A DNA stretch of 64,000 nt, from contig JACPKR010000032.1 of NCBI GenBank assembly GCA_016186945.1, forward strand, positions 10,198 to 74,197, read 5' to 3'. The stretch is from Deltaproteobacteria bacterium. GTDB lineage: Bacteria > Bdellovibrionota_B > Oligoflexia > Oligoflexales > Bog-1112. The notes under the pieces were generated by a model that saw only the letters and a list, made by a program, of their open reading frames with translations, ran no database searches and was not told where the DNA came from. Shown in pieces: positions 2,883-53,409 of the stretch (position 1 is the stretch's first letter; every line of letters begins with the position of its first letter). The translations under genes and the position numbers were made by a program.

Positions 2883-3029
2883 GTATTACGTAAGCCACTT
2901 GGGGCAAGGAGGTGGTTTGGAGGAAACTGCGCAGCTGGTTCCTCCAAGAAAAATCTATGGGGGAGCGACGGTTCCCTCTCCCCCCCAAACCCCCCTCTCC
3001 CTATTTGCCCCAAGTGGCTTACGCATTAC
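2883..3029 (+). mobile_element. MITE-like element, full copy abutting the tkt stop codon
   Basis: GTATTACGTAAGCCACTTGGGGCAAGGAGGTGGTTTGGAGGAAACTGCGCAGCTGGTTCCTCC...TTGCCCCAAGTGGCTTACGCATTAC. TCAGACAA(G) is found on both flanks (8-9 bp TSD). Confidence 0.85.
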
Positions 3030-7228: not shown

Positions 7229-8431
7229 ATGCTGAGCTTTATCCCCCCTCTAAGCAGCCTTTCTCTCATGGTTCTTGGAACCAGCTTTTTCATGACATTT
7301 ATTACCGTTCATTTGAAGCAGCAGATTGCTACTGACTTTGAAATCGGGGTGATCCACGCATCGTACTACGCTGGTATATTGGTCAGCTCGTTTTCTGTCA
7401 CTCGCATGATCCAGACTGTGGGGCACATTCGAGTGATTGCTGCTTTTTGTGGAGTTACGGTAACGGCTACTCTGTTACAGTCTTACCATTATGACGTCAT
7501 TCTTTGGTCAATATGTCGTTTTTTCGCAGGGTATAGTTTGGGGGCGTTTTATATTGGGACACAAAGTTGGATTACCGCAGCGACTGAGAACCACAACCGC
7601 GGCTTTGGTTTGGCTGTCTATACGCTTGTCATTTATTTGGCACAAGCCTTGAGTCAGGAGCTGCTGTTTATCCTGCCTGACGAATCACATGCGCCGTTTA
7701 TTTTAAGTGCGCTCATCGTGGGGCTTGCGGGTGTTCCCGCGTTGTTGATTCCCAGGAATGCTCCCTCTGCTTCTTTTGCAACGCCAGGCAAGTTTCGACA
7801 TTTCTTGAGAATTGAACCGTTTGGAACGAGCACGGCACTTGTTTCTGGGCTGGTATTGTCGGCGATTTACAGTTTCGGACCTGCCTATGCTTTCGTCAGC
7901 GGGGTCAGTGCTCCTCGTTTTATGGGAAGCTTGATCATCGGGGGTGCTGTTCTACAGTGGCCGATAGGAAAGTTGTCTGACAAGGTGCGCCGTCGTAAAG
8001 TTCTCTACGGGGTCATTTTGTTTTCACTGTTACCAGTCTTGTACCTGTTATTTGCGCCTTTAGCACATTGGTCGCTGTACCTTGCTGCTTTTTTTGCAGG
8101 AGGATTTATCGTCAGTTTATATCCGATCGGTGTTTCCATGGTCTATGACTATGTGAAACGGGATGACATTGTACCCTCCACCAGCGCTTTACTTTTTGCA
8201 TACGGGATAGGTTCAGTTGTGGGGCCGGTGATAACCTCGCACTTTACGGAACGGTCGGTAAACTTGCTGTTTTTATATTTGGCACTTTCATTACTCCTTC
8301 TCTTTGGCATTGGGCTGATAACCAGGGAACCAAAGTACTTTATCAATGAAAAGCCGGTAGATTTTATACCCGTCCCCCGTTCCCCCGTCGCGGTCGAGTT
8401 AGAATCACGTGTTTTTGAAGAAAAATTATGA
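7229..8431 (+). CDS. MFS transporter (400 aa, ~12 TM)
   Basis: Hydrophobic throughout with two 6-TM halves, YcaD/YfkF-like in appearance. Substrate unknown. Confidence 0.75.
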   Translation: MLSFIPPLSSLSLMVLGTSFFMTFITVHLKQQIATDFEIGVIHASYYAGILVSSFSVTRMIQTVGHIRVIAAFCGVTVTATLLQSYHYDVILWSICRFFAGYSLGAFYIGTQSWITAATENHNRGFGLAVYTLVIYLAQALSQELLFILPDESHAPFILSALIVGLAGVPALLIPRNAPSASFATPGKFRHFLRIEPFGTSTALVSGLVLSAIYSFGPAYAFVSGVSAPRFMGSLIIGGAVLQWPIGKLSDKVRRRKVLYGVILFSLLPVLYLLFAPLAHWSLYLAAFFAGGFIVSLYPIGVSMVYDYVKRDDIVPSTSALLFAYGIGSVVGPVITSHFTERSVNLLFLYLALSLLLLFGIGLITREPKYFINEKPVDFIPVPRSPVAVELESRVFEEKL

Positions 8432-8470
8432 TACGAAGATAGAGTCTGTAAACTAACGGGGAACATTGAC

Positions 8471-10558
8471 ATGTCGCGATCATTTGTGTTTTGTACTTTT
8501 CTTTTCTCAATGCAAGCATGCACCCACCTATGGGCAGAAACGACAGAAAACCGTGGACGGGTTCTCAATTGGGAGCTTCGTGCGGATCAGATAACGGAAA
8601 GCTGCAAGGCTGCGCAGACCCATTTGACGGGGCAGGCAAACTCTCTTCTTGCAGGAGAAACGCCCTCAGTTTCTGTGACGCTCCTTGGGATGGACCGCGC
8701 TCTTACGGAATTTTCAAACGAGATAAGTCCTCTCGATTTTTACCGCCATGTTCTGAAAGATGCCAAACTTCAGGAAGCGGCCAAGCAGTGTTACGAGGAA
8801 AGTGAGAAACTTATCCTAGACATTTTCTCACGTCAGGACTTTTATGATGGGTTGAAGGCAATCAAGAATGAAAAAATGGTCAAAGATCTCGTGCAAGAAC
8901 GCTTGTTGGAGAAGTTTCTCTACCAGCTGGAAGCAAACGGGATGGGTCTCAAGCTAGAAAAAAGACAAACGCTTTTGGCGTTGAAAGAAGAACTGATACA
9001 GATCACGTCAAGCTTCGAGCAGGTCCTCAATAACTGGGAGGATAAACTCCATTTTTCCAAGTCAGAGTTGGAAGGTTTGCCAACAAGTGTTTTAGAGGGA
9101 TTGGAAAAATCAGATCAGCCCGGCAAAGACTTCGTTGTGACCTTGCAGTACCCACATTATTTCCCCGTAATGAAGTATGTAAAAAATCCCAAAGTTCGTG
9201 AAGAGGTTTACCGACACTTCAACCTGAAAGGCGGGGTTGAAAATAGGGACCGACTGAAACAGGCGGTAAGCATCCGACTTCAAATCGCCAACTTGCTAGG
9301 CTACAAGAACTTTGCTGAATTTAGCCTCAAGCAAAAGATGGTAAGGGACCCTGAGACAGTCCTCAGCTTCTTGGATGAACTGAAGGGTAAGCTGAAAAGC
9401 AGAACGAAAAAAGAACTGGCAAAACTTGGAACCTATAAGAAGAAGGAACACGGCAAATCCGTCGAAGGCCAGAAACTAGACCCCTGGGATATAGCCTACT
9501 ACGACAACCAGCTTGTGGAAACTGAGTACAAGGTGAACGAGGAGGAAATCAAAACTTACTTCCCTGTCGAGGAAAGCATCGAGCGCATGCTCGACATTTA
9601 CCAGACACTCATGGGTGTTGATTTTGTGGATGCAAAGGATGAGAAGACCTGGCACCCCGACGTCCGCTCGTTTCAAGTCGTCGATCGTGAAACAAAGAAG
9701 ATTGTGGCAAAATTCCACATGGACCTTTTCCCCAGGGAAGGGAAATACGGTCACGCTGCTGCTTTCACCCTTATCTCTGGTTATAAGAAGGAAGACGGCA
9801 ACTACGAAATGCCAATATCGTCGATCGTTGCTAATTTCAACAAGCCTACCGCTGAGCAGCCCGCGCTTCTTACTCATGATCAGCTTGAGACGCTCTATCA
9901 CGAGTTTGGCCACATCATGCATCAAGTTCTTACAACCGCACCCTATGGTTCCCTCTCTGGGACCAGCGTGAAGCGTGATTTTGTGGAAGCCCCTTCGCAA
10001 ATGCTGGAAAATTGGGTATGGGAAAATGAAATTTTGGGAAAAATCAGCTCCCACTATAAAACCGGTAAGCCGATGCCCTCAGATTTGATGGATCGTCTCA
10101 TCAAAACCAGATATGTGAATAGGGGCATTTTCTACTCAAAGCAGATTTTCTATGGGTCGATTGATATGGCCTATCATACCTTGAAGGACACTGACAAACT
10201 TGACACCACGAAATTATATAGGGACCTCTACGAGCAAATCAATTTCACTAAGCTTCCGAAAGATATTTACCCAGAGGCGTCCTTCGGTCACATAATGGGG
10301 GGATACGAGGCAGGTTATTACGGTTACCTGTGGTCAGAAGTTTACGCCCAAGACATGTTCACACGGTTCGCAAAGGAAGGACTTTTAAACCCGCAGACCG
10401 GCAAGGACTATCGCAGAATTATTGTTGAGCTGGGAGATACGAAGGACCCTATGGACCTCATCGTGAGTTTTCTGGGTAGAAAACCGAACAACGAAGCGTT
10501 TCTCAGGCAGTTAGGTCAGTGGAAAAAGATTGGATACAAAGCAGGGAAGGGTTCGTAA
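8471..10558 (+). CDS. M3-family zinc oligopeptidase (thimet oligopeptidase / Dcp-like), secreted or periplasmic
   Basis: HEFGHIMH zinc motif with downstream EAPSQMLENW. Length and overall pattern are typical of peptidase family M3. N-terminal signal-like MSRSFVFCTFLFSMQACTHLWA. Confidence 0.88.
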   Translation: MSRSFVFCTFLFSMQACTHLWAETTENRGRVLNWELRADQITESCKAAQTHLTGQANSLLAGETPSVSVTLLGMDRALTEFSNEISPLDFYRHVLKDAKLQEAAKQCYEESEKLILDIFSRQDFYDGLKAIKNEKMVKDLVQERLLEKFLYQLEANGMGLKLEKRQTLLALKEELIQITSSFEQVLNNWEDKLHFSKSELEGLPTSVLEGLEKSDQPGKDFVVTLQYPHYFPVMKYVKNPKVREEVYRHFNLKGGVENRDRLKQAVSIRLQIANLLGYKNFAEFSLKQKMVRDPETVLSFLDELKGKLKSRTKKELAKLGTYKKKEHGKSVEGQKLDPWDIAYYDNQLVETEYKVNEEEIKTYFPVEESIERMLDIYQTLMGVDFVDAKDEKTWHPDVRSFQVVDRETKKIVAKFHMDLFPREGKYGHAAAFTLISGYKKEDGNYEMPISSIVANFNKPTAEQPALLTHDQLETLYHEFGHIMHQVLTTAPYGSLSGTSVKRDFVEAPSQMLENWVWENEILGKISSHYKTGKPMPSDLMDRLIKTRYVNRGIFYSKQIFYGSIDMAYHTLKDTDKLDTTKLYRDLYEQINFTKLPKDIYPEASFGHIMGGYEAGYYGYLWSEVYAQDMFTRFAKEGLLNPQTGKDYRRIIVELGDTKDPMDLIVSFLGRKPNNEAFLRQLGQWKKIGYKAGKGS

Positions 10559-14495: not shown

Positions 14496-14664
14496 TACAG
14501 GCACCTCCCACTTGGGGCAAGGAGGTGGTTTGGAGGAAACTGCGCAGCTGGTTCCTCCAAGAAATCCCTTGGGGGAGCGACCCTTCGCTTTGCTCAGGGC
14601 AGGCTTTTCCCTCGCCCCCCCAAACCCCCCTCTCACTTTTTGCCCCAAGTGGCTTACGCATTAC
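14496..14664 (+). mobile_element. MITE copy, long sub-family (extra CCCTTCGCTTTGCTCAGGGCAGGCTTTTCC insert); left end degenerate
   Basis: The right TIR TTGCCCCAAGTGGCTTACGCATTAC is intact and contains the stop codon (TAA, 14661-14663) of the adjacent gene. Confidence 0.8.
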
Positions 14665-21689: not shown

Positions 21690-21833
21690 GGTAATGCGTA
21701 AGCCACTTGGGGCAAGGAGGTGGTTTGGAGGAAACTGCGCAGCTGGTTCCTCCAAGAAATCCGGGGGAGGCGACGCTTCACTCGCCCCCCCAAACCCCCC
21801 TCTCCCTATTTGCCCCAAGTAGCTTACGCATTA
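21690..21833 (+). mobile_element. MITE-like element, reference full copy (144 bp) with 9-bp TSD GTTTCTTGG, inserted between rfbA and rfbC
   Basis: GTAATGCGTAAGCCACTTGGGGCAA-GGAGGTGGTTTGGAGGAAACTGCGCAGCTGGTTCCTCCAAGAAATCCGGGGGAGGCGACGCTTCACTCGCCCCCCCAAACCCCCCTCTCCCTA-TTTGCCCCAAGTAGCTTACGCATTAC. GTTTCTTGG is present on both flanks. Confidence 0.88.
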
Positions 21834-43190: not shown

Positions 43191-43336
43191 GTAATGCGTA
43201 AGCCACTTGGGGCAAATAGGGAGAGGGGGGTTTGGGGGGGCGAGGGAACCGTCGCTCCCCCAAGGGATTTCTTGGAGGAACCAGCTGCGCAGTTTCCTCC
43301 GAACCACCTCCTTGCCCCAAGTGGCTTACGCATTAC
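43191..43336 (-). mobile_element. MITE-like element, full copy with both 25-bp TIRs intact
   Basis: GTAATGCGTAAGCCACTTGGGGCAA...TTGCCCCAAGTGGCTTACGCATTAC. Flanks are ACGTTCGG / ACGTTCAGG (an imperfect 8-9 bp TSD). Confidence 0.88.
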
Positions 43337-44225: not shown

Positions 44226-44603
44226 CTAGTTGGTCACCGTTTCGTAAATCAGTGTACCACCCCAGGCGAGGCCCAACAAAGCAGCAAGTGCCCCCGCACC
44301 GATGAACACCCCCATTCCCACACTTCTGCAAGTGTTTTTGAGATCTTCATGGTTGCGATCGTAACTGCTATGCCCGTAACAGAAGCTACCAAGACCGACG
44401 CAACTGAGAGTCAGACTTCCGAGTGCTCCTATTCCAAAGTAATGGTAATGACCCAGCCACCAGTCCCCTACTTGGGAAGCTGTCAAGATTTCACCAGGTT
44501 CTGCTGAGTCGCTCACTGTCGTATTGTTAGCAAAGGTACTTGAAGAGAGCGTTCCGAAACTTAGAGATAGCGTCAGGACAATTTGCATACATTTTTTCAC
44601 CAT
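44226..44603 (-). CDS. Small secreted/membrane protein with glycine-zipper-like helices
   Basis: Signal-like N-terminus MQIVLTLSLSFGTLSSSTFA. Gly-rich hydrophobic segments. Tightly packed between hemH and the SDR gene. Confidence 0.5.
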   Translation of the reverse strand: MVKKCMQIVLTLSLSFGTLSSSTFANNTTVSDSAEPGEILTASQVGDWWLGHYHYFGIGALGSLTLSCVGLGSFCYGHSSYDRNHEDLKNTCRSVGMGVFIGAGALAALLGLAWGGTLIYETVTN

Positions 44604-45826: not shown

Positions 45827-46219
45827 TTAGACATGGCGACCGTTAGAGATGCGATGAGTCTGGGGACCATTGCGATGTACCTCGCTAATGTCAGTGAGAT
45901 TTGGGGGCGAGTAAACAGTTAGAATTTTCATTGATAGCAGCGGCGAGGATGGGAGTGCATCGAGATACCCTTCGGCGCTGGGCCAATGCTCGTAGTTAAT
46001 GCCTCGCTTTTGACCCGGAGTCTTTGATGAAGTTCTATATACATCAGCCCAAGTCATTTTTTCGATTTTGTTGATTGTTGCCTGGACAGAGTCCAATTCA
46101 GAATCTGCAATTTTCTCTAAGTCGTTAAGAAAGCCGGGAAAGTCAGTATCGACGACTACCAACTCATTTTGTGTTGATAATGGCTTCCGATGGGTTGTTT
46201 TTTTGGATTGTTTAACCAC
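45827..46219 (-). CDS. Hypothetical protein (130 aa)
   Basis: The GTG start overlaps the stop of the upstream small reading frame (GTGGTTAA), an arrangement typical of two-gene cassettes. No family recognised. Confidence 0.4.
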   Translation of the reverse strand: MVKQSKKTTHRKPLSTQNELVVVDTDFPGFLNDLEKIADSELDSVQATINKIEKMTWADVYRTSSKTPGQKRGINYEHWPSAEGYLDALPSSPLLSMKILTVYSPPNLTDISEVHRNGPQTHRISNGRHV

Positions 46220-46405
46220 GTTTTCGCGCTTTCAGCTTGGCGCGTAGATCGTTATTTGGCTTCGCCCTAGGTGGGTTTTCTTTTTCCCACTGATCAAATT
46301 TAGCGGGAAATTTCTCTATTAAAATTTCTCGACCGGCAAACTCCTTACCGATGCTATTTGACCGTTATTGCCAACGGTTGCTAATTTTTTTATTGGCTCA
46401 CCCAT
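46212..46405 (-). pseudogene. Small gene apparently split by a frameshift (AbrB/MazE-like antitoxin guess)
   Basis: GGAGG-caaat-ATG opens MGEPIKKLATVGNNGQIASVRSLPVEKF-stop-stop. A second frame continues IEKFPAKFDQWEKENPPRAKPNNDLRAKLKARKRG and overlaps the next gene's start. GAGAAATTT is repeated at the junction. Confidence 0.3.
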
Positions 46406-46470
46406 ATTTGCCTCCATCTCTAAAAATACCAGAATATTGAAAATATGTAAATTTGAATGATTCTAACTTA

Positions 46471-46547
46471 CGTAATGCGTAAGCCACTTGGGGCAAATAC
46501 GCAGTTTCCTCCAAACCACCTCCTTGCCCCAAGTGGCTTACGCATTA
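46471..46547 (-). mobile_element. Internally deleted MITE derivative (77 bp; both TIRs, half core)
   Basis: GTAATGCGTAAGCCACTTGGGGCAAATA|CGCAGTTTCCTCCAAACCACCTCCTTGCCCCAAGTGGCTTACGCATTAC. Confidence 0.85.
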
Positions 46548-46636
46548 CCAAGAAGGCCCTTGAAGGCTTGACTTATCGTTAGATAAAGTAAAATATGAAC
46601 TACAATGCTCCAGGTTAACTAAACTAGGGGATTTTT

Positions 46637-47077
46637 ATGATTTATCATTTAAGGCGAGCATTCGTACTTGGCGTATGTCTATTAGCCAAATTGAGCTGCG
46701 GACACATGGAAAAAAGTAAATCCGTTGTAGACTGTGGATTCAGCTACCCCGGAACTTGTGGTGGGTACGCCGCGACGGGTTATTGTACTTTAGAGGTTGG
46801 TAAACCATTTACCCTAGCTCCTGATGATAAGTACGGCCCAATTAATGGATTTGTAGCATCCTCAAAGGCAACTACAAAGCAAGAAGATGGTTCCCTGGTT
46901 TCCAGCGAGCTTCCCCCCGGACTTTCTCTCAACGGTGATACCGGAGTCATCAGTGGAACTCCTACTTCTGCTCCTTATAAGGAATACGCATCCCTAATCA
47001 CTGCAAATTGCGGCGGTGGCGGTACACTTAGCACTCCTGTTACGTTTTTTTTCTGGCTCTCCCAACCTCCAGACTAG
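46637..47077 (+). CDS. Putative lipoprotein with He_PIG/cadherin-like Ig motif
   Basis: Signal/lipobox-like MIYHLRRAFVLGVCLLAKLSC. LPPGLSLNGDTGVISGTPTS is the hallmark of the putative-Ig (He_PIG) domain. Confidence 0.6.
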   Translation: MIYHLRRAFVLGVCLLAKLSCGHMEKSKSVVDCGFSYPGTCGGYAATGYCTLEVGKPFTLAPDDKYGPINGFVASSKATTKQEDGSLVSSELPPGLSLNGDTGVISGTPTSAPYKEYASLITANCGGGGTLSTPVTFFFWLSQPPD

Positions 47078-47423
47078 CGTTCCAAAAATTTCAGGACTGC
47101 ATACGAAATACCCAGGAACAAGAGGAAGCTCTGTTTTATACCGGATATGGTCAAACAGAAGTTGATATTGTTGCGCTGGTTTATTACCGCTATGAACGGA
47201 TTGTGCAGGATTTTGCGGCCTACTGTGAGCAGCTTCTCTTGAGCGACGAAGGAGGCGAAGACCGCCCCAATAGCCTGCGCCAAATTGCCGAACAATTCCT
47301 CCCCGGTGACGTGATCGACATGGCCTACCGCGCTGAAAAGCACCTCCCATCCGAACTTCAGCACCTTGAAGAACAAGCGCTTTCCGAGCACCGCCTCATA
47401 GGCAGTTGCTAAACCTAACTTAA

Positions 47424-48005
47424 CTAGGGAGACGCTTCAAGCGTCACGCGAGCGATCCACTGATCTGCATCCCTCTGCCAACGGCCAGCGGAGGGAAAGT
47501 AATGTTGTTGGGTGTAGTCGGGAAACTTGAGCAGGTCGTCTCGTCGGTACACAGGTTGGAAAAGTTTGGGGGCGTGGGGCTTGCTGAGAAACCAAAAGCG
47601 ACACTTACCGAGGTGGGACCATTCTGCGACGACGAAAAGAGGGAAGCGTAGGAGGAGAACTCCGTGAAGCTCTTGAACCCGGTGGTCTCTTAGCAGTGTT
47701 GCAAAACGAAAGGGAGGCTGAGAACCGAGCTGCTGGGAAAGGGCTGTTGTAAGGCAGATCCAGCTCTGCAGGATGGATTTACTGAGGCAATAGCGCTGCC
47801 AGAAAGCGAGACGATCACGGGTCTGTTTGCATTGCGGGATCGCACGGATCAAGTGAAAAAACGTGGGGACTGCATCCTCGGGAGGCAGAATTTCGGAGGA
47901 CGGCAGCAGGGACGCGCATGCGTTTTCCAGCGCTAGGGTCACGGACTCAAATTGGGGTGCTGCAACGGAATTGCCGTCGGTAAGCGCCTTGAGGAAACCA
48001 CTCAT
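47424..48005 (-). CDS. 193-aa protein of unknown function, third gene of the MotA/MotB-like module (possible minimal EH-signature/ZorC-like domain)
   Basis: ATGA overlap with the upstream OmpA-domain gene. Motifs RLAFWQRY, VVAEWSHLGKCRFWF and QQHYFPSAGRWQ. The EH-signature resemblance is from memory only. Confidence 0.6.
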   Translation of the reverse strand: MSGFLKALTDGNSVAAPQFESVTLALENACASLLPSSEILPPEDAVPTFFHLIRAIPQCKQTRDRLAFWQRYCLSKSILQSWICLTTALSQQLGSQPPFRFATLLRDHRVQELHGVLLLRFPLFVVAEWSHLGKCRFWFLSKPHAPKLFQPVYRRDDLLKFPDYTQQHYFPSAGRWQRDADQWIARVTLEASP

Positions 48006-48811
48006 GGTTCCTCCATGCCGGATGGGCTGTCAAAGCTCATGAGGAAGCGGATGTCGATCCGTCTATTGCGAGGGTCGTTAGGGTCCTCGGCAACTATGGG
48101 ACGCAAGTACGAATAGCCGCTCGCAGCAAGGAGGGGGTGCCCTCGTTTATTGCTAAGGCCGTCGAGTTCGTTTCGGCAACTTTTCAAAACACGTAACACC
48201 GTTGTCGCACGTGAGGCTGATAACGACAGATTGTCTCGAAACATCAAGCCAGGTTTAAGAGGCATGGCGTCGGTATGTCCTTCGACAAGGATTGTATCGA
48301 GGCTTCCCCGGCTTTGAGACGGGCATGTGCTTGGGGGGATCTCTTTCTGTGAACACCAGGCAGGGGGAGCCTCACCAGTAGCTTCGCTGCCTGGCTGGTG
48401 ACTGAAACACGGAAGGACCGACTGGAGAACGTTCGCAAGTTTCGCAAGATTTTCCAGTTGCTCTTTGTACGGCATCGCCTGGCCAATGGGGAAGGCGATT
48501 GTTTTTTCTGTCAGACGCAAGATGCCTTCCTTGACAAGGACCTGGGCTTCGAGACCTTCCTGGTTCAAAAGGGCCTGAACTTTTTCCAGAATGTTCTGGC
48601 GCAGCGTGAGCGGGTGTTGAAGCTTCTCTTTCTCTCTCAGCAGTTTTTCCTGCTCGGTCTTGAGTGCAAGGGAATGGATAACGAGGATGAGAAGGAACAC
48701 AAAAACCATGCTTGCGAGCAGGTCGGTGATCCAGAGATTAAATGAGGCTTGAGGATTTTTTCGCAAGGGTTTCTGTCCCCTTTGGACTTTTTTTCGGCAA
48801 ATTTCCAACAA
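48002..48811 (-). CDS. MotB/ZorB-like protein: N-terminal TM with conserved Asp plus C-terminal OmpA-like peptidoglycan-binding domain
   Basis: NLWITDLLASMVFVFLLILVI (Asp at the TM entrance, as in the MotB/ExbD/TolR plug-TM). C-terminal ILVEGHTDAMP...LSLSASRATTVLRVL...NRRIDIRFL. The start is uncertain (ATG 48811 or TTG 48766; either overlaps the upstream gene). Confidence 0.8.
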   Translation of the reverse strand: MLEICRKKVQRGQKPLRKNPQASFNLWITDLLASMVFVFLLILVIHSLALKTEQEKLLREKEKLQHPLTLRQNILEKVQALLNQEGLEAQVLVKEGILRLTEKTIAFPIGQAMPYKEQLENLAKLANVLQSVLPCFSHQPGSEATGEAPPAWCSQKEIPPSTCPSQSRGSLDTILVEGHTDAMPLKPGLMFRDNLSLSASRATTVLRVLKSCRNELDGLSNKRGHPLLAASGYSYLRPIVAEDPNDPRNRRIDIRFLMSFDSPSGMEEP

Positions 48812-50075
48812 CTTGCTGAAGGTCGCCTATGGCTCCTGCTAGAGAATGCATACCTCGGCTCATATGTTTGTCGAACTCACGCGTCAAGTTTTTGAACTTA
48901 TCCGTGTAGGCCAAGATGCTGTCGTTCGTGTTTTGAAAGGCGGCGGCCAGGCTCTTGTCTACACCTTCGAAGCGTGTGCAGTAGTTTTCCCACTGTTGGC
49001 TGACTTTGTTTTGCACGTCTCGGATTTCTGTCACTGTGCTGTGCAAATTTTGGGAGATGGATACCCACTGACCGCAGAGCACCTGCGTTGTTTCCAGGGA
49101 GCGAGCAAGGGTTTCCATTTTCGTCAGGAAGCTTGCGAAGTTCTTTAGGACGTCTTTTTGTTCTGCCAGCAATGCCAGCACATTTTCTTTATCGGAATAT
49201 ATGTTTCGCATAGCGTCTTGCATCGACTTGATTTCGTTCCAGGATGTTTTGAACAGTGCTGTGCGGAACGATTCCATAGCTTGCTGCACCCATTCGCTCA
49301 GTGCCAGTTCTTTTTCTTGTCGACTATGCGCCAGATGTTCTTGGATTTGCTTAAGGACCACCTGGGATTCTTGTGACAGAAGCATCTGACTATGGGTCAA
49401 TTGCGAGGACGAAACTACATCGACCCGGTTGCGTAAAAGCGTATTCATCCTCTTGATCAAAGCTTGGATTGTCTCGATTTGCGCTTTTTCCAGTTTTGCA
49501 AAACACAGGCCACTCGCCATTCCCACAATGGAGGTCCAGAAAGCCAGTGAGGATCCCCCGAGAAGCTGATAAAGAGACGCCTGCAGCTGATTCAAGTCTC
49601 CGCCAGCAAAACCCGTTCGAGCAACGTAGACACCGCTTGCCAATCCGCAGAATGTTCCCAAAATTCCCAGACCTCCTAGTTGAGTGGGAATCATCCCATA
49701 GGTTTGGGAACTTAGCGTCGGTTCGATCAGTCGCTCCTCATTAAAGCATGCATCGGGGGGAGTGAAGGAGATTTTGGTCGGGCGAGGGGTCTCTGTAAAA
49801 GCGAGCTGGTTTACGAAGTCTTGCCAAGGGGTCCGCAATTTCGCCAACATCATGACTTTGGCGTCGACGTCAACAAATCGTTCTGCAAACGCTTTGGGGG
49901 ACGAAAAACCTTTGATAATTCGCAGAGCCTCCCACAACTGACTTTTTAAGTTAGCCCCTTCCCAGTAAAGCGAAAGTCCCCAATAAAAAGCATAGAGAAG
50001 CGTTGCCACACACCAAAGCCACACAAAGGTGGGTGACACGAAAAACGTTATGATTTGTTCGAGGGAAACTCCCAT
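48738..50075 (-). CDS. MotA/ExbB/TolQ-family proton-channel protein with ~250-aa C-terminal helical tail (ZorA-like architecture)
   Basis: TM1 at the N-terminus. The MotA_ExbB signature helices are MIPTQLGGLGILGTFCGLASGV and LGGSSLAFWTSIVGMASGLCFA. A long Q/E/K/L-rich helical tail follows to the C-terminus. Confidence 0.8.
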   Translation of the reverse strand: MGVSLEQIITFFVSPTFVWLWCVATLLYAFYWGLSLYWEGANLKSQLWEALRIIKGFSSPKAFAERFVDVDAKVMMLAKLRTPWQDFVNQLAFTETPRPTKISFTPPDACFNEERLIEPTLSSQTYGMIPTQLGGLGILGTFCGLASGVYVARTGFAGGDLNQLQASLYQLLGGSSLAFWTSIVGMASGLCFAKLEKAQIETIQALIKRMNTLLRNRVDVVSSSQLTHSQMLLSQESQVVLKQIQEHLAHSRQEKELALSEWVQQAMESFRTALFKTSWNEIKSMQDAMRNIYSDKENVLALLAEQKDVLKNFASFLTKMETLARSLETTQVLCGQWVSISQNLHSTVTEIRDVQNKVSQQWENYCTRFEGVDKSLAAAFQNTNDSILAYTDKFKNLTREFDKHMSRGMHSLAGAIGDLQQVVGNLPKKSPKGTETLAKKSSSLI

Positions 50076-50289: not shown

Positions 50290-50376
50290 GCTGGAGTGGC
50301 GGAATTGGTAGACGCGCTGGACTCAAAATCCAGTGGGGGCAACCCCGTGAGAGTTCGATTCTCTCCCCCAGCACCA
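50290..50376 (+). tRNA. tRNA-Leu (anticodon CAA)
   Basis: Hand-folded cloverleaf: acceptor GCTGGAG/CCCCAGC (A6:C67 mismatch), D-arm GCG-AATTGGTAGA-CGC, anticodon arm CTGGA-CTCAAAA-TCCAG, long variable arm GGGG-CAA-CCCC, T-arm GAGAG-TTCGATT-CTCTC, encoded CCA. Confidence 0.9.
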
Positions 50377-50383
50377 TGGGATT

Positions 50384-50471
50384 GCTCAGGTGGCGGAATT
50401 TGGTAGACGCGCTGGACTCAGAATCCAGTGGGGGTAACCCCGTGAGAGTTCAAGTCTCTCCCCGAGCACCA
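50384..50471 (+). tRNA. tRNA-Leu (anticodon CAG)
   Basis: Same architecture: acceptor GCTCAGG/CCCGAGC (A5:C68 mismatch), anticodon loop CTCAGAA, variable arm GGGG-TAA-CCCC, T-arm GAGAG-TTCAAGT-CTCTC, encoded CCA. Confidence 0.9.
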
Positions 50472-50852: not shown

Positions 50853-50990
50853 GTAATGCGTAAGCCACTTGGGGCAAATAGGGAGAGGGGGGTTTGGGGG
50901 GGCGAGTGAAGCGTCGCCTCCCCCGGATTTCTTGGAGGAACCAGCTGCGCAGTTTCCTCCAAACCACCTCCTTGCCCCAAGTGGCTTACG
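50853..50990 (-). mobile_element. MITE-like element, right TIR truncated; 9-bp TSD CCCCAAAAA
   Basis: CCCCAAAAA is directly left of GTAATGCGTAAGCC and directly right of ...GTGGCTTACG. Confidence 0.85.
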
Positions 50991-51009
50991 CCCCAAAAAA
51001 AGGTTATCT

Positions 51010-53409
51010 ATGAGAAAAACGATCGCTCGGGCAGTGATACTGGGATTTGTTCTCTTGGGAGTATTGATACTAGGCTTTGGGTATTATTTGCGTTCCAAGC
51101 AGCCTAAGAGAGACGGGGAGTTAACGCTTCCAGGGCTTCAAGACTCTGTCGAGGTTTTATACGACAAATGGGCTATTCCCCACATCTATGCGAAACATGA
51201 CCGAGATGCTTATTTTGCTCTTGGTTATCTCCATGCCCAGGACCGCCTTTTCCAGATGGAGATGTTGAGGCGTCTGGCTCGTGGAGAGCTTTCGGAAATT
51301 CTAGGCACAGACACTCTTAAATTTGACAAAATTTTCCGTACCTTAGGGGTAAGGCAGATAGCCCAAGCCTCACTTGAAAAAGTTGACAGAAACTCCCCGG
51401 GTTTTCGCGATTTGGAGGGGTATGTCGAAGGGATCAATCACTTCATTAGGGAAGGTGGAACACCAGTTGAATTCGATATCCTGGGTATTCCCAAGCGACC
51501 ATTTGATTTGGTGGATCCGTTCTGCATTTCTGGATATATGGCTTTCAGCTTTGTGAAGGCATTAACGACGGATCCGATGTTGACCTATGTTGGATTGACA
51601 TTGGGTGTCGAGTATCTTCTAGATTTGGATCCTGACTTTGATCCTGCAGCAATCGAAAGTTCCAGGGCGCACGCAGATCAACTTATGCGCGGTGCCTGGA
51701 AGTTGGCAGAAAGTTGGGAGACTATACGTCAGCCTTTCGGCCTTTTCGATGGTTCCAACGCCTGGGTGATTGCGGGATCGCGAACGAGGTCGGGAAAGCC
51801 TATTTTAGCAAATGATCCTCACATTAATTTCTCGGCTCCCTCGGTTTGGTTTGAGGCCTATTTGAACACTCCCAGCCTTTCCCTTTATGGCCACCACATT
51901 GCCGGAGTTCCCATCGCTCTCCTTGGGAACAACGAATACCATGCGTGGGGCCTGACGATGTTGCAAAATGACGGGATGGATTTTTTCAGGGAAAAGTTGA
52001 ATCCTGACAATCCTGATCAGGTTTGGTTCCAAGATCACTGGGAAACCTTCAGCAAAAGAACCGAGCTTATTAAAATCAAGGGGTCGGACGATCTTGTTTG
52101 GGAGGTACAATCAACGAGGCATGGCCCGATTGTAAACGAGGTGGTTGAGGGATTCCAGCAGTACGACGACCCGATTTCTGCTTGGTGGGATTACGCAAGT
52201 GAAGAGAACAATGTGTTTATGGGTTTCTATGACCTTGCCCGTTCTCATGGAATGATCGAGGCAGAAAAGGCGGTTTCTAAAATCCACTCCCCAGGTCTAA
52301 ATGTTGTCTATGCGAATGCTGACGGTGATATTGCGTGGTGGACGGCTGCTCGTTTTCCCATTCATGCACCTGGCACCTATTCGACGATCCTTCTTGATGG
52401 ATCCTCGGGTAAGGATGAATTTCTAGGTTTCTACCCGTTCTCTTCCAATCCGTCTCAGAAAAACCCCTCGAAAGGATTCATTGCCTCGGCCAATCAAGAT
52501 ACCTTTGTGAATCACTCTTTTCGCGTCCCTGGATATTTCAATCCGCCTGACCGTTTCTACCTGATCGAAAAGCATTTGGAGGAAAAATCCTCAGATTGGA
52601 CGTCGGAAGATGTCAAGGCCCTTCATTTGAACACCGAACACTCAAGTTACCGACATCTTCTGGATGAGTTTCTTGTAATCCTGGCAGACCAGGTGCGCAC
52701 GTCCTCGGAATTATCACAGAAGGCGTATGCCCTTCTTGTGGATTGGGATTTGCAACACCGACTCAATTCTCAGGGAGCTACAGTTTTCCATGAATTCCTG
52801 GCAAACCTCATTCGTTTGGTCTTTCATGAAAAATTGACTGATGTTTATTACGATGGGTTTCTAAAATCGCATCTCATTCATACGACCCTTGATCGCGTAT
52901 TCACCAACCCAGATTCTCCATGGTGGAATGACGGAGAGGGGCGAAGTCAGCGGGATGCCTGGATTCAGAAAGCCTGGGAAGAGACCGTAGCGGGTCTTGA
53001 GGTCAAGTTAGGCTCAGACCCTCAGACCTGGCTTTGGAGCCGTGTGCATGATGTGGAGCACAAGCATATCTTGGGAAAGCTGAAGCCGCTTGACTGGTTT
53101 TTCAACGTTGGTCCGTTTGTCGTCGAAGGTTCAACGGAAGTGGTCAACAATTTCCTCTTCAAGTTCTCCACGGGGCACAAGGACGTTTTCGCAGGCCCTT
53201 CCACAAGGCGCATTATTGATTTTGGCAATCCAACGCATTCGCTGGGGATCAATCCGACAGGACAGTCGGGATACTTCGCCAACCACCATTACAGGGACCA
53301 AGCAGCCATGTTTCACCAAGGCGAATATCGCCTGCAATTGATGGACAGGGCTGACCTTGAACGGGGTGAAATGAAACGTCTGTGGCTTCGTCCCGCTAAA
53401 AAGCTATAG
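51010..53409 (+). CDS. Penicillin amidase / acyl-homoserine-lactone acylase family Ntn-hydrolase
   Basis: ORF 50869..53409 trimmed: the first 47 codons are MITE read-through. MRKTIARAVILGFVLLGVLILGF is a signal/anchor. The autoprocessing/nucleophile region is FDGSNAWVIAGSRTRSGKPILANDPH. Confidence 0.88.
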   Translation: MRKTIARAVILGFVLLGVLILGFGYYLRSKQPKRDGELTLPGLQDSVEVLYDKWAIPHIYAKHDRDAYFALGYLHAQDRLFQMEMLRRLARGELSEILGTDTLKFDKIFRTLGVRQIAQASLEKVDRNSPGFRDLEGYVEGINHFIREGGTPVEFDILGIPKRPFDLVDPFCISGYMAFSFVKALTTDPMLTYVGLTLGVEYLLDLDPDFDPAAIESSRAHADQLMRGAWKLAESWETIRQPFGLFDGSNAWVIAGSRTRSGKPILANDPHINFSAPSVWFEAYLNTPSLSLYGHHIAGVPIALLGNNEYHAWGLTMLQNDGMDFFREKLNPDNPDQVWFQDHWETFSKRTELIKIKGSDDLVWEVQSTRHGPIVNEVVEGFQQYDDPISAWWDYASEENNVFMGFYDLARSHGMIEAEKAVSKIHSPGLNVVYANADGDIAWWTAARFPIHAPGTYSTILLDGSSGKDEFLGFYPFSSNPSQKNPSKGFIASANQDTFVNHSFRVPGYFNPPDRFYLIEKHLEEKSSDWTSEDVKALHLNTEHSSYRHLLDEFLVILADQVRTSSELSQKAYALLVDWDLQHRLNSQGATVFHEFLANLIRLVFHEKLTDVYYDGFLKSHLIHTTLDRVFTNPDSPWWNDGEGRSQRDAWIQKAWEETVAGLEVKLGSDPQTWLWSRVHDVEHKHILGKLKPLDWFFNVGPFVVEGSTEVVNNFLFKFSTGHKDVFAGPSTRRIIDFGNPTHSLGINPTGQSGYFANHHYRDQAAMFHQGEYRLQLMDRADLERGEMKRLWLRPAKKL

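Follow-up and report, generated by a model that had tools for sequence, protein, structure and literature searches.

The window analysed here is a 64-kb (64,000-nucleotide) stretch of contig JACPKR010000032.1 from a Deltaproteobacteria bacterium of the Oligoflexales (GCA_016186945.1). It carries a compact three-gene module encoding a short-tailed ZorA-like protein (A), a ZorB-like protein (B) and a free-standing EH-signature subdomain of ZorC (C), without ZorD. In the literature the Zorya systems fall into type I, with ZorC and ZorD beside the ZorAB core, type II, with ZorE, and type III, with ZorF and ZorG (PMC11890865, PMC8565338). We read the module as a functional, reduced derivative of type I Zorya, a reading to which we assign a probability of about 0.5. 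It is most likely an envelope sensor whose predicted output uses no nuclease encoded in cis. As far as can be judged from the sequence, the parts for a proton-driven, peptidoglycan-anchoring motor of the ZorA5B2 type are complete, i.e. three transmembrane helices (TMs), the Thr/Ser filter, the ZorB Asp and an OmpA-like domain. An anti-phage role is suggested by homology.

The motor proteins and the EH protein

The genes follow one another in the order A-B-C on a single strand (Table 1). The stop codon of A is at 48738-48740, A thus overlapping B, and the stop codon of B and the start codon of C overlap in an ATGA at 48002-48005; both junctions were read from the sequence. Shine-Dalgarno-type sequences precede the starts of C (GGAGGA) and A (AAGGAG). 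The start of B is more probably the TTG at 48766, giving 254 amino acids (aa), because of an AGGGGA ribosome-binding site and because gene callers chose it on identical Logan contigs; from this start B overlaps A by 29 nt. With this as the sole correction, the open reading frame (ORF) list and the junctions agree with the original prediction, made by a model from the letters alone, of three translationally coupled genes on the minus strand, and the motifs it quoted (GGLGILGTFCGLASGV, SLAFWTSIVGMASGLCFA, WITDLLASMVFVF, RLAFWQRY, AEWSHLGKCRFWF and HYFPSAGRWQ) are all present. A scan of the locus for promoters and terminators gave counts no better than in shuffled sequence.

A consists of TM1, a membrane-proximal cytoplasmic domain with a β-hairpin, TM2 and TM3, and a helical tail of ~245 aa. 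It matches the PADLOC profile ZorA1 (2e-23) over the N-terminal 360 profile positions and, separately, at the tail tip, where residues 348-422 align to positions 545-619 of 639. Against the NCBIfam ZorA models it scores below the cut-offs (NF033914, 88.6 bits vs 190; NF041794, 40 vs 750) and is therefore a divergent ZorA. A sequence search of the PDB with phmmer matched Shewanella ZorA (8vvn_C) and E. coli ZorA (EcZorA, 8qyd_A). The AlphaFold2 (AF2) model of A, like that of C a monomer, has a predicted local distance difference test score (pLDDT) of 77 and consists of TM1, the cytoplasmic domain with its β-hairpin, TM2/TM3 and ~200 residues of helix. With this model Foldseek finds 8qyd_A (E = 9e-10) and 8vvn_C (r.m.s.d. 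2.9 Å), and ExbB/TolQ at E ~2e-3, the match to the ZorA fold thus being ahead by about six orders of magnitude (~10^6-fold). A residue-level alignment places T141 and S182 of A on Thr147 and Ser184, the ion-filter residues of EcZorA. Defence in E. coli needs both of these, together with Asp26 of ZorB and the Ca2+ ligands Glu86 and Glu89 of ZorA (PMC11946911).

The tail of A extends ~245 aa beyond TM3, compared with 291-546 aa (median 419) in 35 canonical ZorA proteins, and is shorter than in every one of them. Among relatives with a similarly short C (described below) the tail measures 244-264 aa in loci without ZorB and 340-361 aa in the others, and that of the window is the shortest among those retaining ZorB. 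The tip is conserved, with W362, R368, F369, D373, L376 and D402 invariant in 19 homologues. A ZorA with a short tail is what had been predicted, and the length comparison together with the PADLOC and Foldseek matches confirms it.

B crosses the membrane once, in a TM that contains Asp30 (codon 48722-48724), and ends in a peptidoglycan-binding domain of the OmpA/MotB type; the essential Asp in a lone TM and the peptidoglycan-binding domain are the features of a type I ZorB. The PADLOC profile ZorB1 PDLC00610 covers it at full length (3e-56), and D30 aligns to D24 of Shewanella ZorB (PDB 8vvn_B, 6.6e-15), the counterpart of both being D26 in EcZorB. Pfam OmpA reaches 20.9 bits, under its gathering score of 27.2; the OmpA-type motifs are legible (GHTD...NLSLSASRA...RNRRIDIRF). 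The NCBIfam models for MotB and MotD match weakly, all far under their cut-offs. The conserved TM Asp and the OmpA-type domain had both been recognized in the original prediction, and the full-length ZorB1 match, the alignment of D30 and the motifs uphold this, with Pfam OmpA staying sub-threshold.

C begins with ~40 poorly ordered residues, followed by the EH-signature subdomain (residues 44-190). On Pfam EH_Signature (PF15611) it reaches 37.9 bits over profile positions 273-379 of 423, where 27.5 bits is the gathering score, and the earlier comparison of C with the EH-signature core of ZorC was therefore right. PADLOC ZorC1 matches at 1.7e-23, only over profile positions 311-455 of 462, and the AF2 model (pLDDT 80) has as its sole significant fold match in the PDB the E. 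coli ZorC (EcZorC) structure 8r68 (Foldseek, probability 1.0, TM-score 0.53 on the query). C is by these matches no TolA-, TonB- or TolR-like partner. A single-sequence phmmer search of C against the PDB gave no match, profile and fold searches being needed. Foldseek against viral structures returned nothing significant, and there is therefore no hint of a phage decoy.

The EH network of EcZorC comprises Glu400 and His443 with Asp332, Arg335, Trp339 and Trp458 (PMC11946911). The network residues in C are R65, W69, E128 (codon 47622-47624), H168 (codon 47502-47504) and W183. A profile alignment equates E128, R65 and W69 with E400, R335 and W339; H168 and W183 would correspond to H443 and W458, as judged from spacing alone. 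C represents the contiguous C-terminal ~170 residues of long ZorC, beginning just past the conserved GDPR motif, and in tblastn searches with long ZorC only their residues ~295-470 align to the window, the N-terminal portion being unmatched. The N-terminus of C is a short lineage-specific peptide. Its first 40 residues were considered as a homologue of the N-terminal helices of long ZorC and rejected for want of a convincing alignment. C is basic, with an isoelectric point (pI) of 9.1 (family range 8.4-9.6).

A lineage with short ZorC and without ZorD

The sequence inspected comprised the 64 kb of this genome and up to 21 kb around each relative. Neither ZorD or a relic of it (17 ZorD queries) nor a relic of the ZorC N-terminal region (~20 long ZorC queries) was found by tblastn at E<=0.05 in the window and six loci of the same short form. 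The longest ORF in the window encodes 846 aa. For the three genes PADLOC reports ZorA, ZorB and ZorC only, with no ZorE (HNH), ZorF or ZorG beside A and B, where the neighbours are housekeeping genes. The module has no effector encoded in cis, be it a nuclease, a helicase or another, in keeping with the original prediction that the helicase or nuclease would be missing. Of 46 informative canonical loci, 44 have ZorD behind long ZorC; behind short C it is missing from all 11 loci with enough downstream sequence, and three further loci (L079-L081) have the short, ZorD-less architecture. The N-terminal ZorC region and ZorD having been lost together suggests that this region is tied to ZorD.

Two candidates for a further component were rejected. 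An all-vs-all BLAST of the neighbours across the short-form loci, run for a conserved fourth gene, recovered lineage synteny only. The other is a 105-aa ORF at 47074-47391 (minus strand), beginning 33 nt past the zorC stop, which gene callers also report on the Logan contigs. Pfam and PADLOC give no match for it, and the related loci contain no homologue; it is probably spurious or an orphan.

A word-indexed search gave nine homologues of C, all of 176-219 aa, and the nine short members have 26 invariant C positions, including those in R..FW, AEWSH.GKCR.W and QQHYF....WQ. An exhaustive profile search of 1.84 billion representatives returned 1195 EH-domain proteins, with ~15-20 short ones scoring highest; the remaining representatives are ~460-490 aa long and match at their C-termini. 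The context of the loci (numbered here with an L), drawn from genome, metagenome and exact-match look-ups, falls into two architectures. The canonical one has ZorA, ZorB, ZorC of ~470 aa and ZorD of ~950-1300 aa, whereas in the short form a ZorA of 423-613 aa is accompanied by short C (185-220 aa), usually also by ZorB (250-284 aa), but in no case by ZorD. This short form was recovered from at least 13 loci, in metagenome-assembled genomes (MAGs) of Oligoflexales and 'Deltaproteobacteria' and in metagenomes. Where a host is named, it is an Oligoflexales MAG or a 'Deltaproteobacteria bacterium' MAG, and one of them bears the label BDEL_B; we infer a host lineage of the Bdellovibrionota/Oligoflexia type. 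L004 (GCA_020635195.1), L010, L011, L032, L077 and L079-L081 share with the window the three-gene layout, the same A, B and C clades and the lack of ZorD, but their ZorA has 556-613 aa and a tail of ~340-361 aa. None of the homologous triplets lies within a motility or uptake operon, a context that had been named as one that would speak against Zorya.

The short form is a single clade in each of four neighbour-joining trees, with bootstrap values of 100/100 for C, 100/100 for B, 99/100 for the A motor and 100/100 for the A tail, the last two treated separately; the alignments are short and the trees unrooted. The clade is probably nested within type I diversity and may have arisen by reduction, because B fits one ZorB1 sub-profile far better (188 bits) than the others (20-140 bits, PADLOC). 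The new subtype that the original prediction had raised as an option is thus a conserved, monophyletic and recurrent architecture. Where its members are named at all they are annotated only as hypothetical proteins, and a clade combining a short ZorC with the lack of ZorD did not turn up in the literature searched.

L039 and L044 were rejected as family members; in both a canonical zorC is split into two ORFs (L039:838-2259, 273+180 aa; L044:3-1139, 196+165 aa), disrupted copies that mimic short EH proteins and lie outside the clade. L031:8282-10558 is a 758-aa ORF with an EH match directly after ZorA and with no recognisable ZorD, and L041 (~8001-8471) has a 463-aa ZorC without recognisable ZorA, ZorB or ZorD. 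These two loci, whose EH match is of canonical length, may be further variants.

The module keeps its place in the chromosome through deep divergence. L008 shares the A-side flank of the window in the same order, with protein identities of 53% (penicillin amidase), 56% (ThiI), 68% and 76% (two further genes), against 32% for A and 48% for C. The C-side flank is common to L008, L077 and L079 (GDSL lipase, PNP or TACO1), and L011 and L080 have in common dihydroorotase upstream and a receiver protein and PfkB downstream. On the strength of these conserved positions among housekeeping genes the module is, to all appearance, vertically inherited and ancient. It is probably under purifying selection, since an unselected 1.3-kb ORF would not stay open at such divergence.

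In L007-L009 C follows A directly and no ZorB is found anywhere within 9-14 kb; L008 being syntenic with the window, ZorB was lost secondarily. The TM2/TM3 motif is degenerate only in these loci, with TS replaced by PV, VG or PI and, in L008, the loop deleted as well. The TS of the ion filter is thus kept in all eight short-C loci that contain ZorB, the window among them, and lost in all three that do not, and GILGTFCGL...LAFWTSI is almost invariant in the eight. This exact retention of the channel motifs wherever ZorB is kept indicates that the motor is under selection wherever it is complete, as in the window. L007-L009 retain TM1, the tail tip and the C motifs, the tail tip being the best-scoring part of their A.

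Receiver-domain genes adjoin several short-C modules (L004:4612-6327, L011:8927-9316, L080:13273-13656 and L009:5930-7812). They encode an RR-TPR protein, CheY-like single-domain proteins, and a LytTR regulator with a histidine kinase. Their neighbourhood may be coincidental because their types and orientations differ.

Surroundings of the module

No flagellar, Tol or TonB genes and no paralogues of A or B are present in the 64-kb window, and the absence of such a context had been noted correctly from the sequence alone, as had the two tRNA-Leu genes, the lipoprotein gene (He_PIG) and the copies of a miniature inverted-repeat transposable element (MITE) as neighbours. The MITE-like element is palindromic with terminal inverted repeats and a core GCGTAAGCCACTTGGGGCAA, whose 13 matches, against 0 expected by chance, fall on seven sites of the window; a full copy measures ~135 nt. 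The shortened copy and that at 50853-50991 bracket the zor module, the tRNA genes and the lipoprotein gene. As ends of a mobile unit the bracketing palindromes were rejected, the element being dispersed at all seven sites. The listed TTG start of the 846-aa penicillin-amidase ORF (50869-53409, plus strand) falls inside this second copy, and translation probably begins further downstream, at the ATG of MRKTIARAV. Two small ORFs on the minus strand between the ferrochelatase and lipoprotein genes (45827-46219, 130 aa; 44226-44603, 125 aa) have no significant Pfam match; the latter looks membrane-bound or secreted, and there is a patch of lower GC content at 46000-46900 in this region.

Table 1. 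Features of the zor module, its neighbourhood and the relatives without ZorB (positions in the window unless a locus is given).
Feature	Position	Strand	Remark
zorA-like gene A	48738-50075	minus	445 aa; ORF list
TM2-loop-TM3 stretch of A	49530-49655	minus	from T141 codon (49653-49655) to S182 codon (49530-49532)
Tail tip of A	48804-49034	minus	residues ~348-424; best-conserved part of the tail
zorB-like gene B	48002-48811	minus	269 aa counted from first TTG (48811)
mini-zorC gene C	47424-48005	minus	193 aa; ORF list
Two tRNA-Leu genes	50290-50376 and 50384-50471		upstream of the module
He_PIG lipoprotein gene	46637-47077		
MITE-like element sites	1983-2116, 2888-3024, 14640-14659, 21696-21829, 43196-43331, 46472-46548, 50853-50991		46472-46548 shortened; 14640-14659 solo end
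Relatives without ZorB	L007:1794-3791, L008:6543-8373, L009:3055-4955		ZorA-like gene, then short EH gene

Probable function and its alternatives

The module most likely descends from type I Zorya (E. coli NCTC9026 and Shewanella ANA-3; PMC11946911, PMC11890865; 8qyd, 8vvn, 8r68) and would work like it. The two have in common the A-B-C order, the three-TM fold of ZorA with its β-hairpin cytoplasmic domain, Thr/Ser ion filter and conserved tail tip, the TM Asp and peptidoglycan-binding domain of ZorB, and the E, H, R, W and W of the EH network in the third protein. What the module fails to show of type I is a full-length ZorC, ZorD and the long ZorA tail. Its third protein has 193 aa instead of ~460-560 aa and is without the N-terminal two-thirds of the ZorC core and the C-terminal globular domain of the E. 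coli protein; the Snf2-related nuclease-helicase ZorD, which adjoins ZorC in type I, is missing within the window; and the tail, which has ~500 aa in E. coli (~507 aa by the closer figure), is reduced to its ~245 aa with the tip conserved. The sub-cut-off NCBIfam scores of A and the housekeeping, vertically inherited context are further differences. Types II (ZorABE) and III (ZorABFG) are alike in joining the ZorAB core to a different, smaller set of soluble partners, i.e. the motor is modular, but the window has no ZorE, ZorF (DUF3348) or ZorG (DUF2894), A and B score best on type I profiles, and the partner is a fragment of the type I-specific ZorC.

In the mechanism we propose, perturbation of the envelope would cause ZorB to anchor to peptidoglycan, as in canonical Zorya, and proton flow would rotate ZorA and its tail. 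The conserved tail tip would then recruit or activate the basic (pI ~9) EH protein at the membrane, which may bind incoming nucleic acid or pass the signal to a factor encoded elsewhere. The canonical nuclease step would be supplied in trans or lie outside the output.

Several observations weigh against a functional type I derivative. In E. coli all four zor genes and the full tail are needed for defence, and every truncation of the tail abolished it, including one that left a ZorA of similar length (PMC11946911). EcZorC is non-functional without its N-terminal helices or its C-terminal globular domain, the latter being needed for DNA binding (PMC11946911), and C has neither of the two. The D332 of EcZorC is replaced by T62 in C, and the Ca2+ site of A is half kept, with D86/N89 instead of the E86/E89 of EcZorA. 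The flanks consist of housekeeping genes without a defence-island signature, and no association with defence islands was found. In the closest relatives (L007-L009) ZorB is gone and the channel helices have degenerated.

A bolder form of the preferred reading, which we regard as possible but put forward tentatively, is that the whole lineage runs a Zorya that is independent of ZorD. The tail tip and the isolated EH subdomain would then be the minimal signal-receiving core, and the output would be something other than DNA degradation encoded in cis, such as blocking or marking of incoming DNA or a domesticated signal of envelope state. The relatives without ZorB would in that case show the pair of tail and EH protein functioning even without the proton motor.

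Somewhat doubtful, though the strongest of the competing explanations, is a domesticated, non-defence role, in which motor and EH domain serve as a housekeeping sensor of envelope or peptidoglycan that signals to cellular targets. It would fit the vertical inheritance at conserved positions among penicillin amidase, ThiI, ferrochelatase, dihydroorotase and PfkB, the absence of a nuclease or helicase nearby and of defence genes in the flanks examined, the receiver-domain genes beside the L004, L011, L080 and L009 copies, and the persistence of the A-C pair without its motor partner in three lineages. All characterised relatives are anti-phage systems, however, and the EH network essential for DNA binding by EcZorC is conserved in C. 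Vertical inheritance also occurs among defence systems. The receiver genes, of varying type and orientation, are frequent in these genomes, and the short-form loci yielded no conserved partner gene.

We consider it unlikely that the module is a decaying relic, a type I Zorya which after losing ZorD and most of ZorC became non-functional and is slowly eroding, with the relatives without ZorB as a later stage. The stepwise reductions (no ZorD, a trimmed ZorC, shortened tails), the loss of ZorB in L007-L009 with decay of the channel motifs, and the fast evolution of A (32% identity between window and L008 against 53-76% for the flanking proteins) could be taken in this way. They have to be set against three ORFs that are intact in many genomes diverged to 30-50% identity, the 26 invariant positions in C of the nine short members, TM2/TM3 motifs nearly identical in the loci with ZorB, and preserved translational coupling and ribosome-binding sites; the truly disrupted zorC of L039 and L044 look different, being split ORFs.

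Slightly less credit still is due to a canonical mechanism with its effector in trans, where a ZorD-like Snf2 protein or other nuclease elsewhere in the genome would be recruited by the mini-ZorC. Motor, tail tip and EH motif are all conserved as this would require, and the stretches inspected leave room for a distant gene, being 64 kb here and at most 21 kb per relative. Such a separation would be unusual given that ZorD adjoins ZorC in 44 of 46 canonical loci; the N-terminal 300 aa of ZorC lost along with ZorD plausibly face ZorD, to judge from that joint loss; and tblastn turned up no ZorD relic in the window or the six short-form loci.

That A and B form a conventional stator of the Mot, Tol or Exb type, next to a third gene unrelated to it, is effectively refuted: A and B do belong to the MotA/ExbB/TolQ and MotB/OmpA superfamilies, with weak MotB/MotD NCBIfam matches, and share with MotAB, PomAB, ExbBD and TolQR an expected 5:2-type architecture, an ion-conducting Asp on the B subunit and an OmpA-like anchor, but those stators have neither a long cytoplasmic tail nor an EH partner (their third components being TonB, TolA or the flagellar rotor), the ZorA- and ZorB-specific profiles fit far better, the similarity in sequence and fold is much weaker than to ZorA (~10^6-fold in the fold matches to ExbB and TolQ), C is an EH-signature protein, and no flagellar or Tol genes are nearby.

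For Zorya as a family, the short form has consequences at several levels. Large surveys retained loci of RefSeq genomes only where the gene order was canonical (PMC11946911, methods), and a filter for zorABCD would exclude the short-C variant; the diversity of Zorya in uncultured phyla may therefore be under-counted. If the module does not serve defence, it would illustrate the domestication of an immune motor for cell physiology. The work on E. coli and Shewanella found four proteins and a full tail indispensable and left open how ZorC and ZorD read the rotation of the tail. The clade described here would be a natural minimal system, having dispensed with ZorD, two-thirds of ZorC and half of the tail while keeping the motor residues, the tail tip and the EH network, and because the tip and the EH subdomain are conserved where the rest is gone, the pattern points to them as the coupling interface. 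With three small genes, the module would be an easier target for structural and genetic dissection of the signal transfer.

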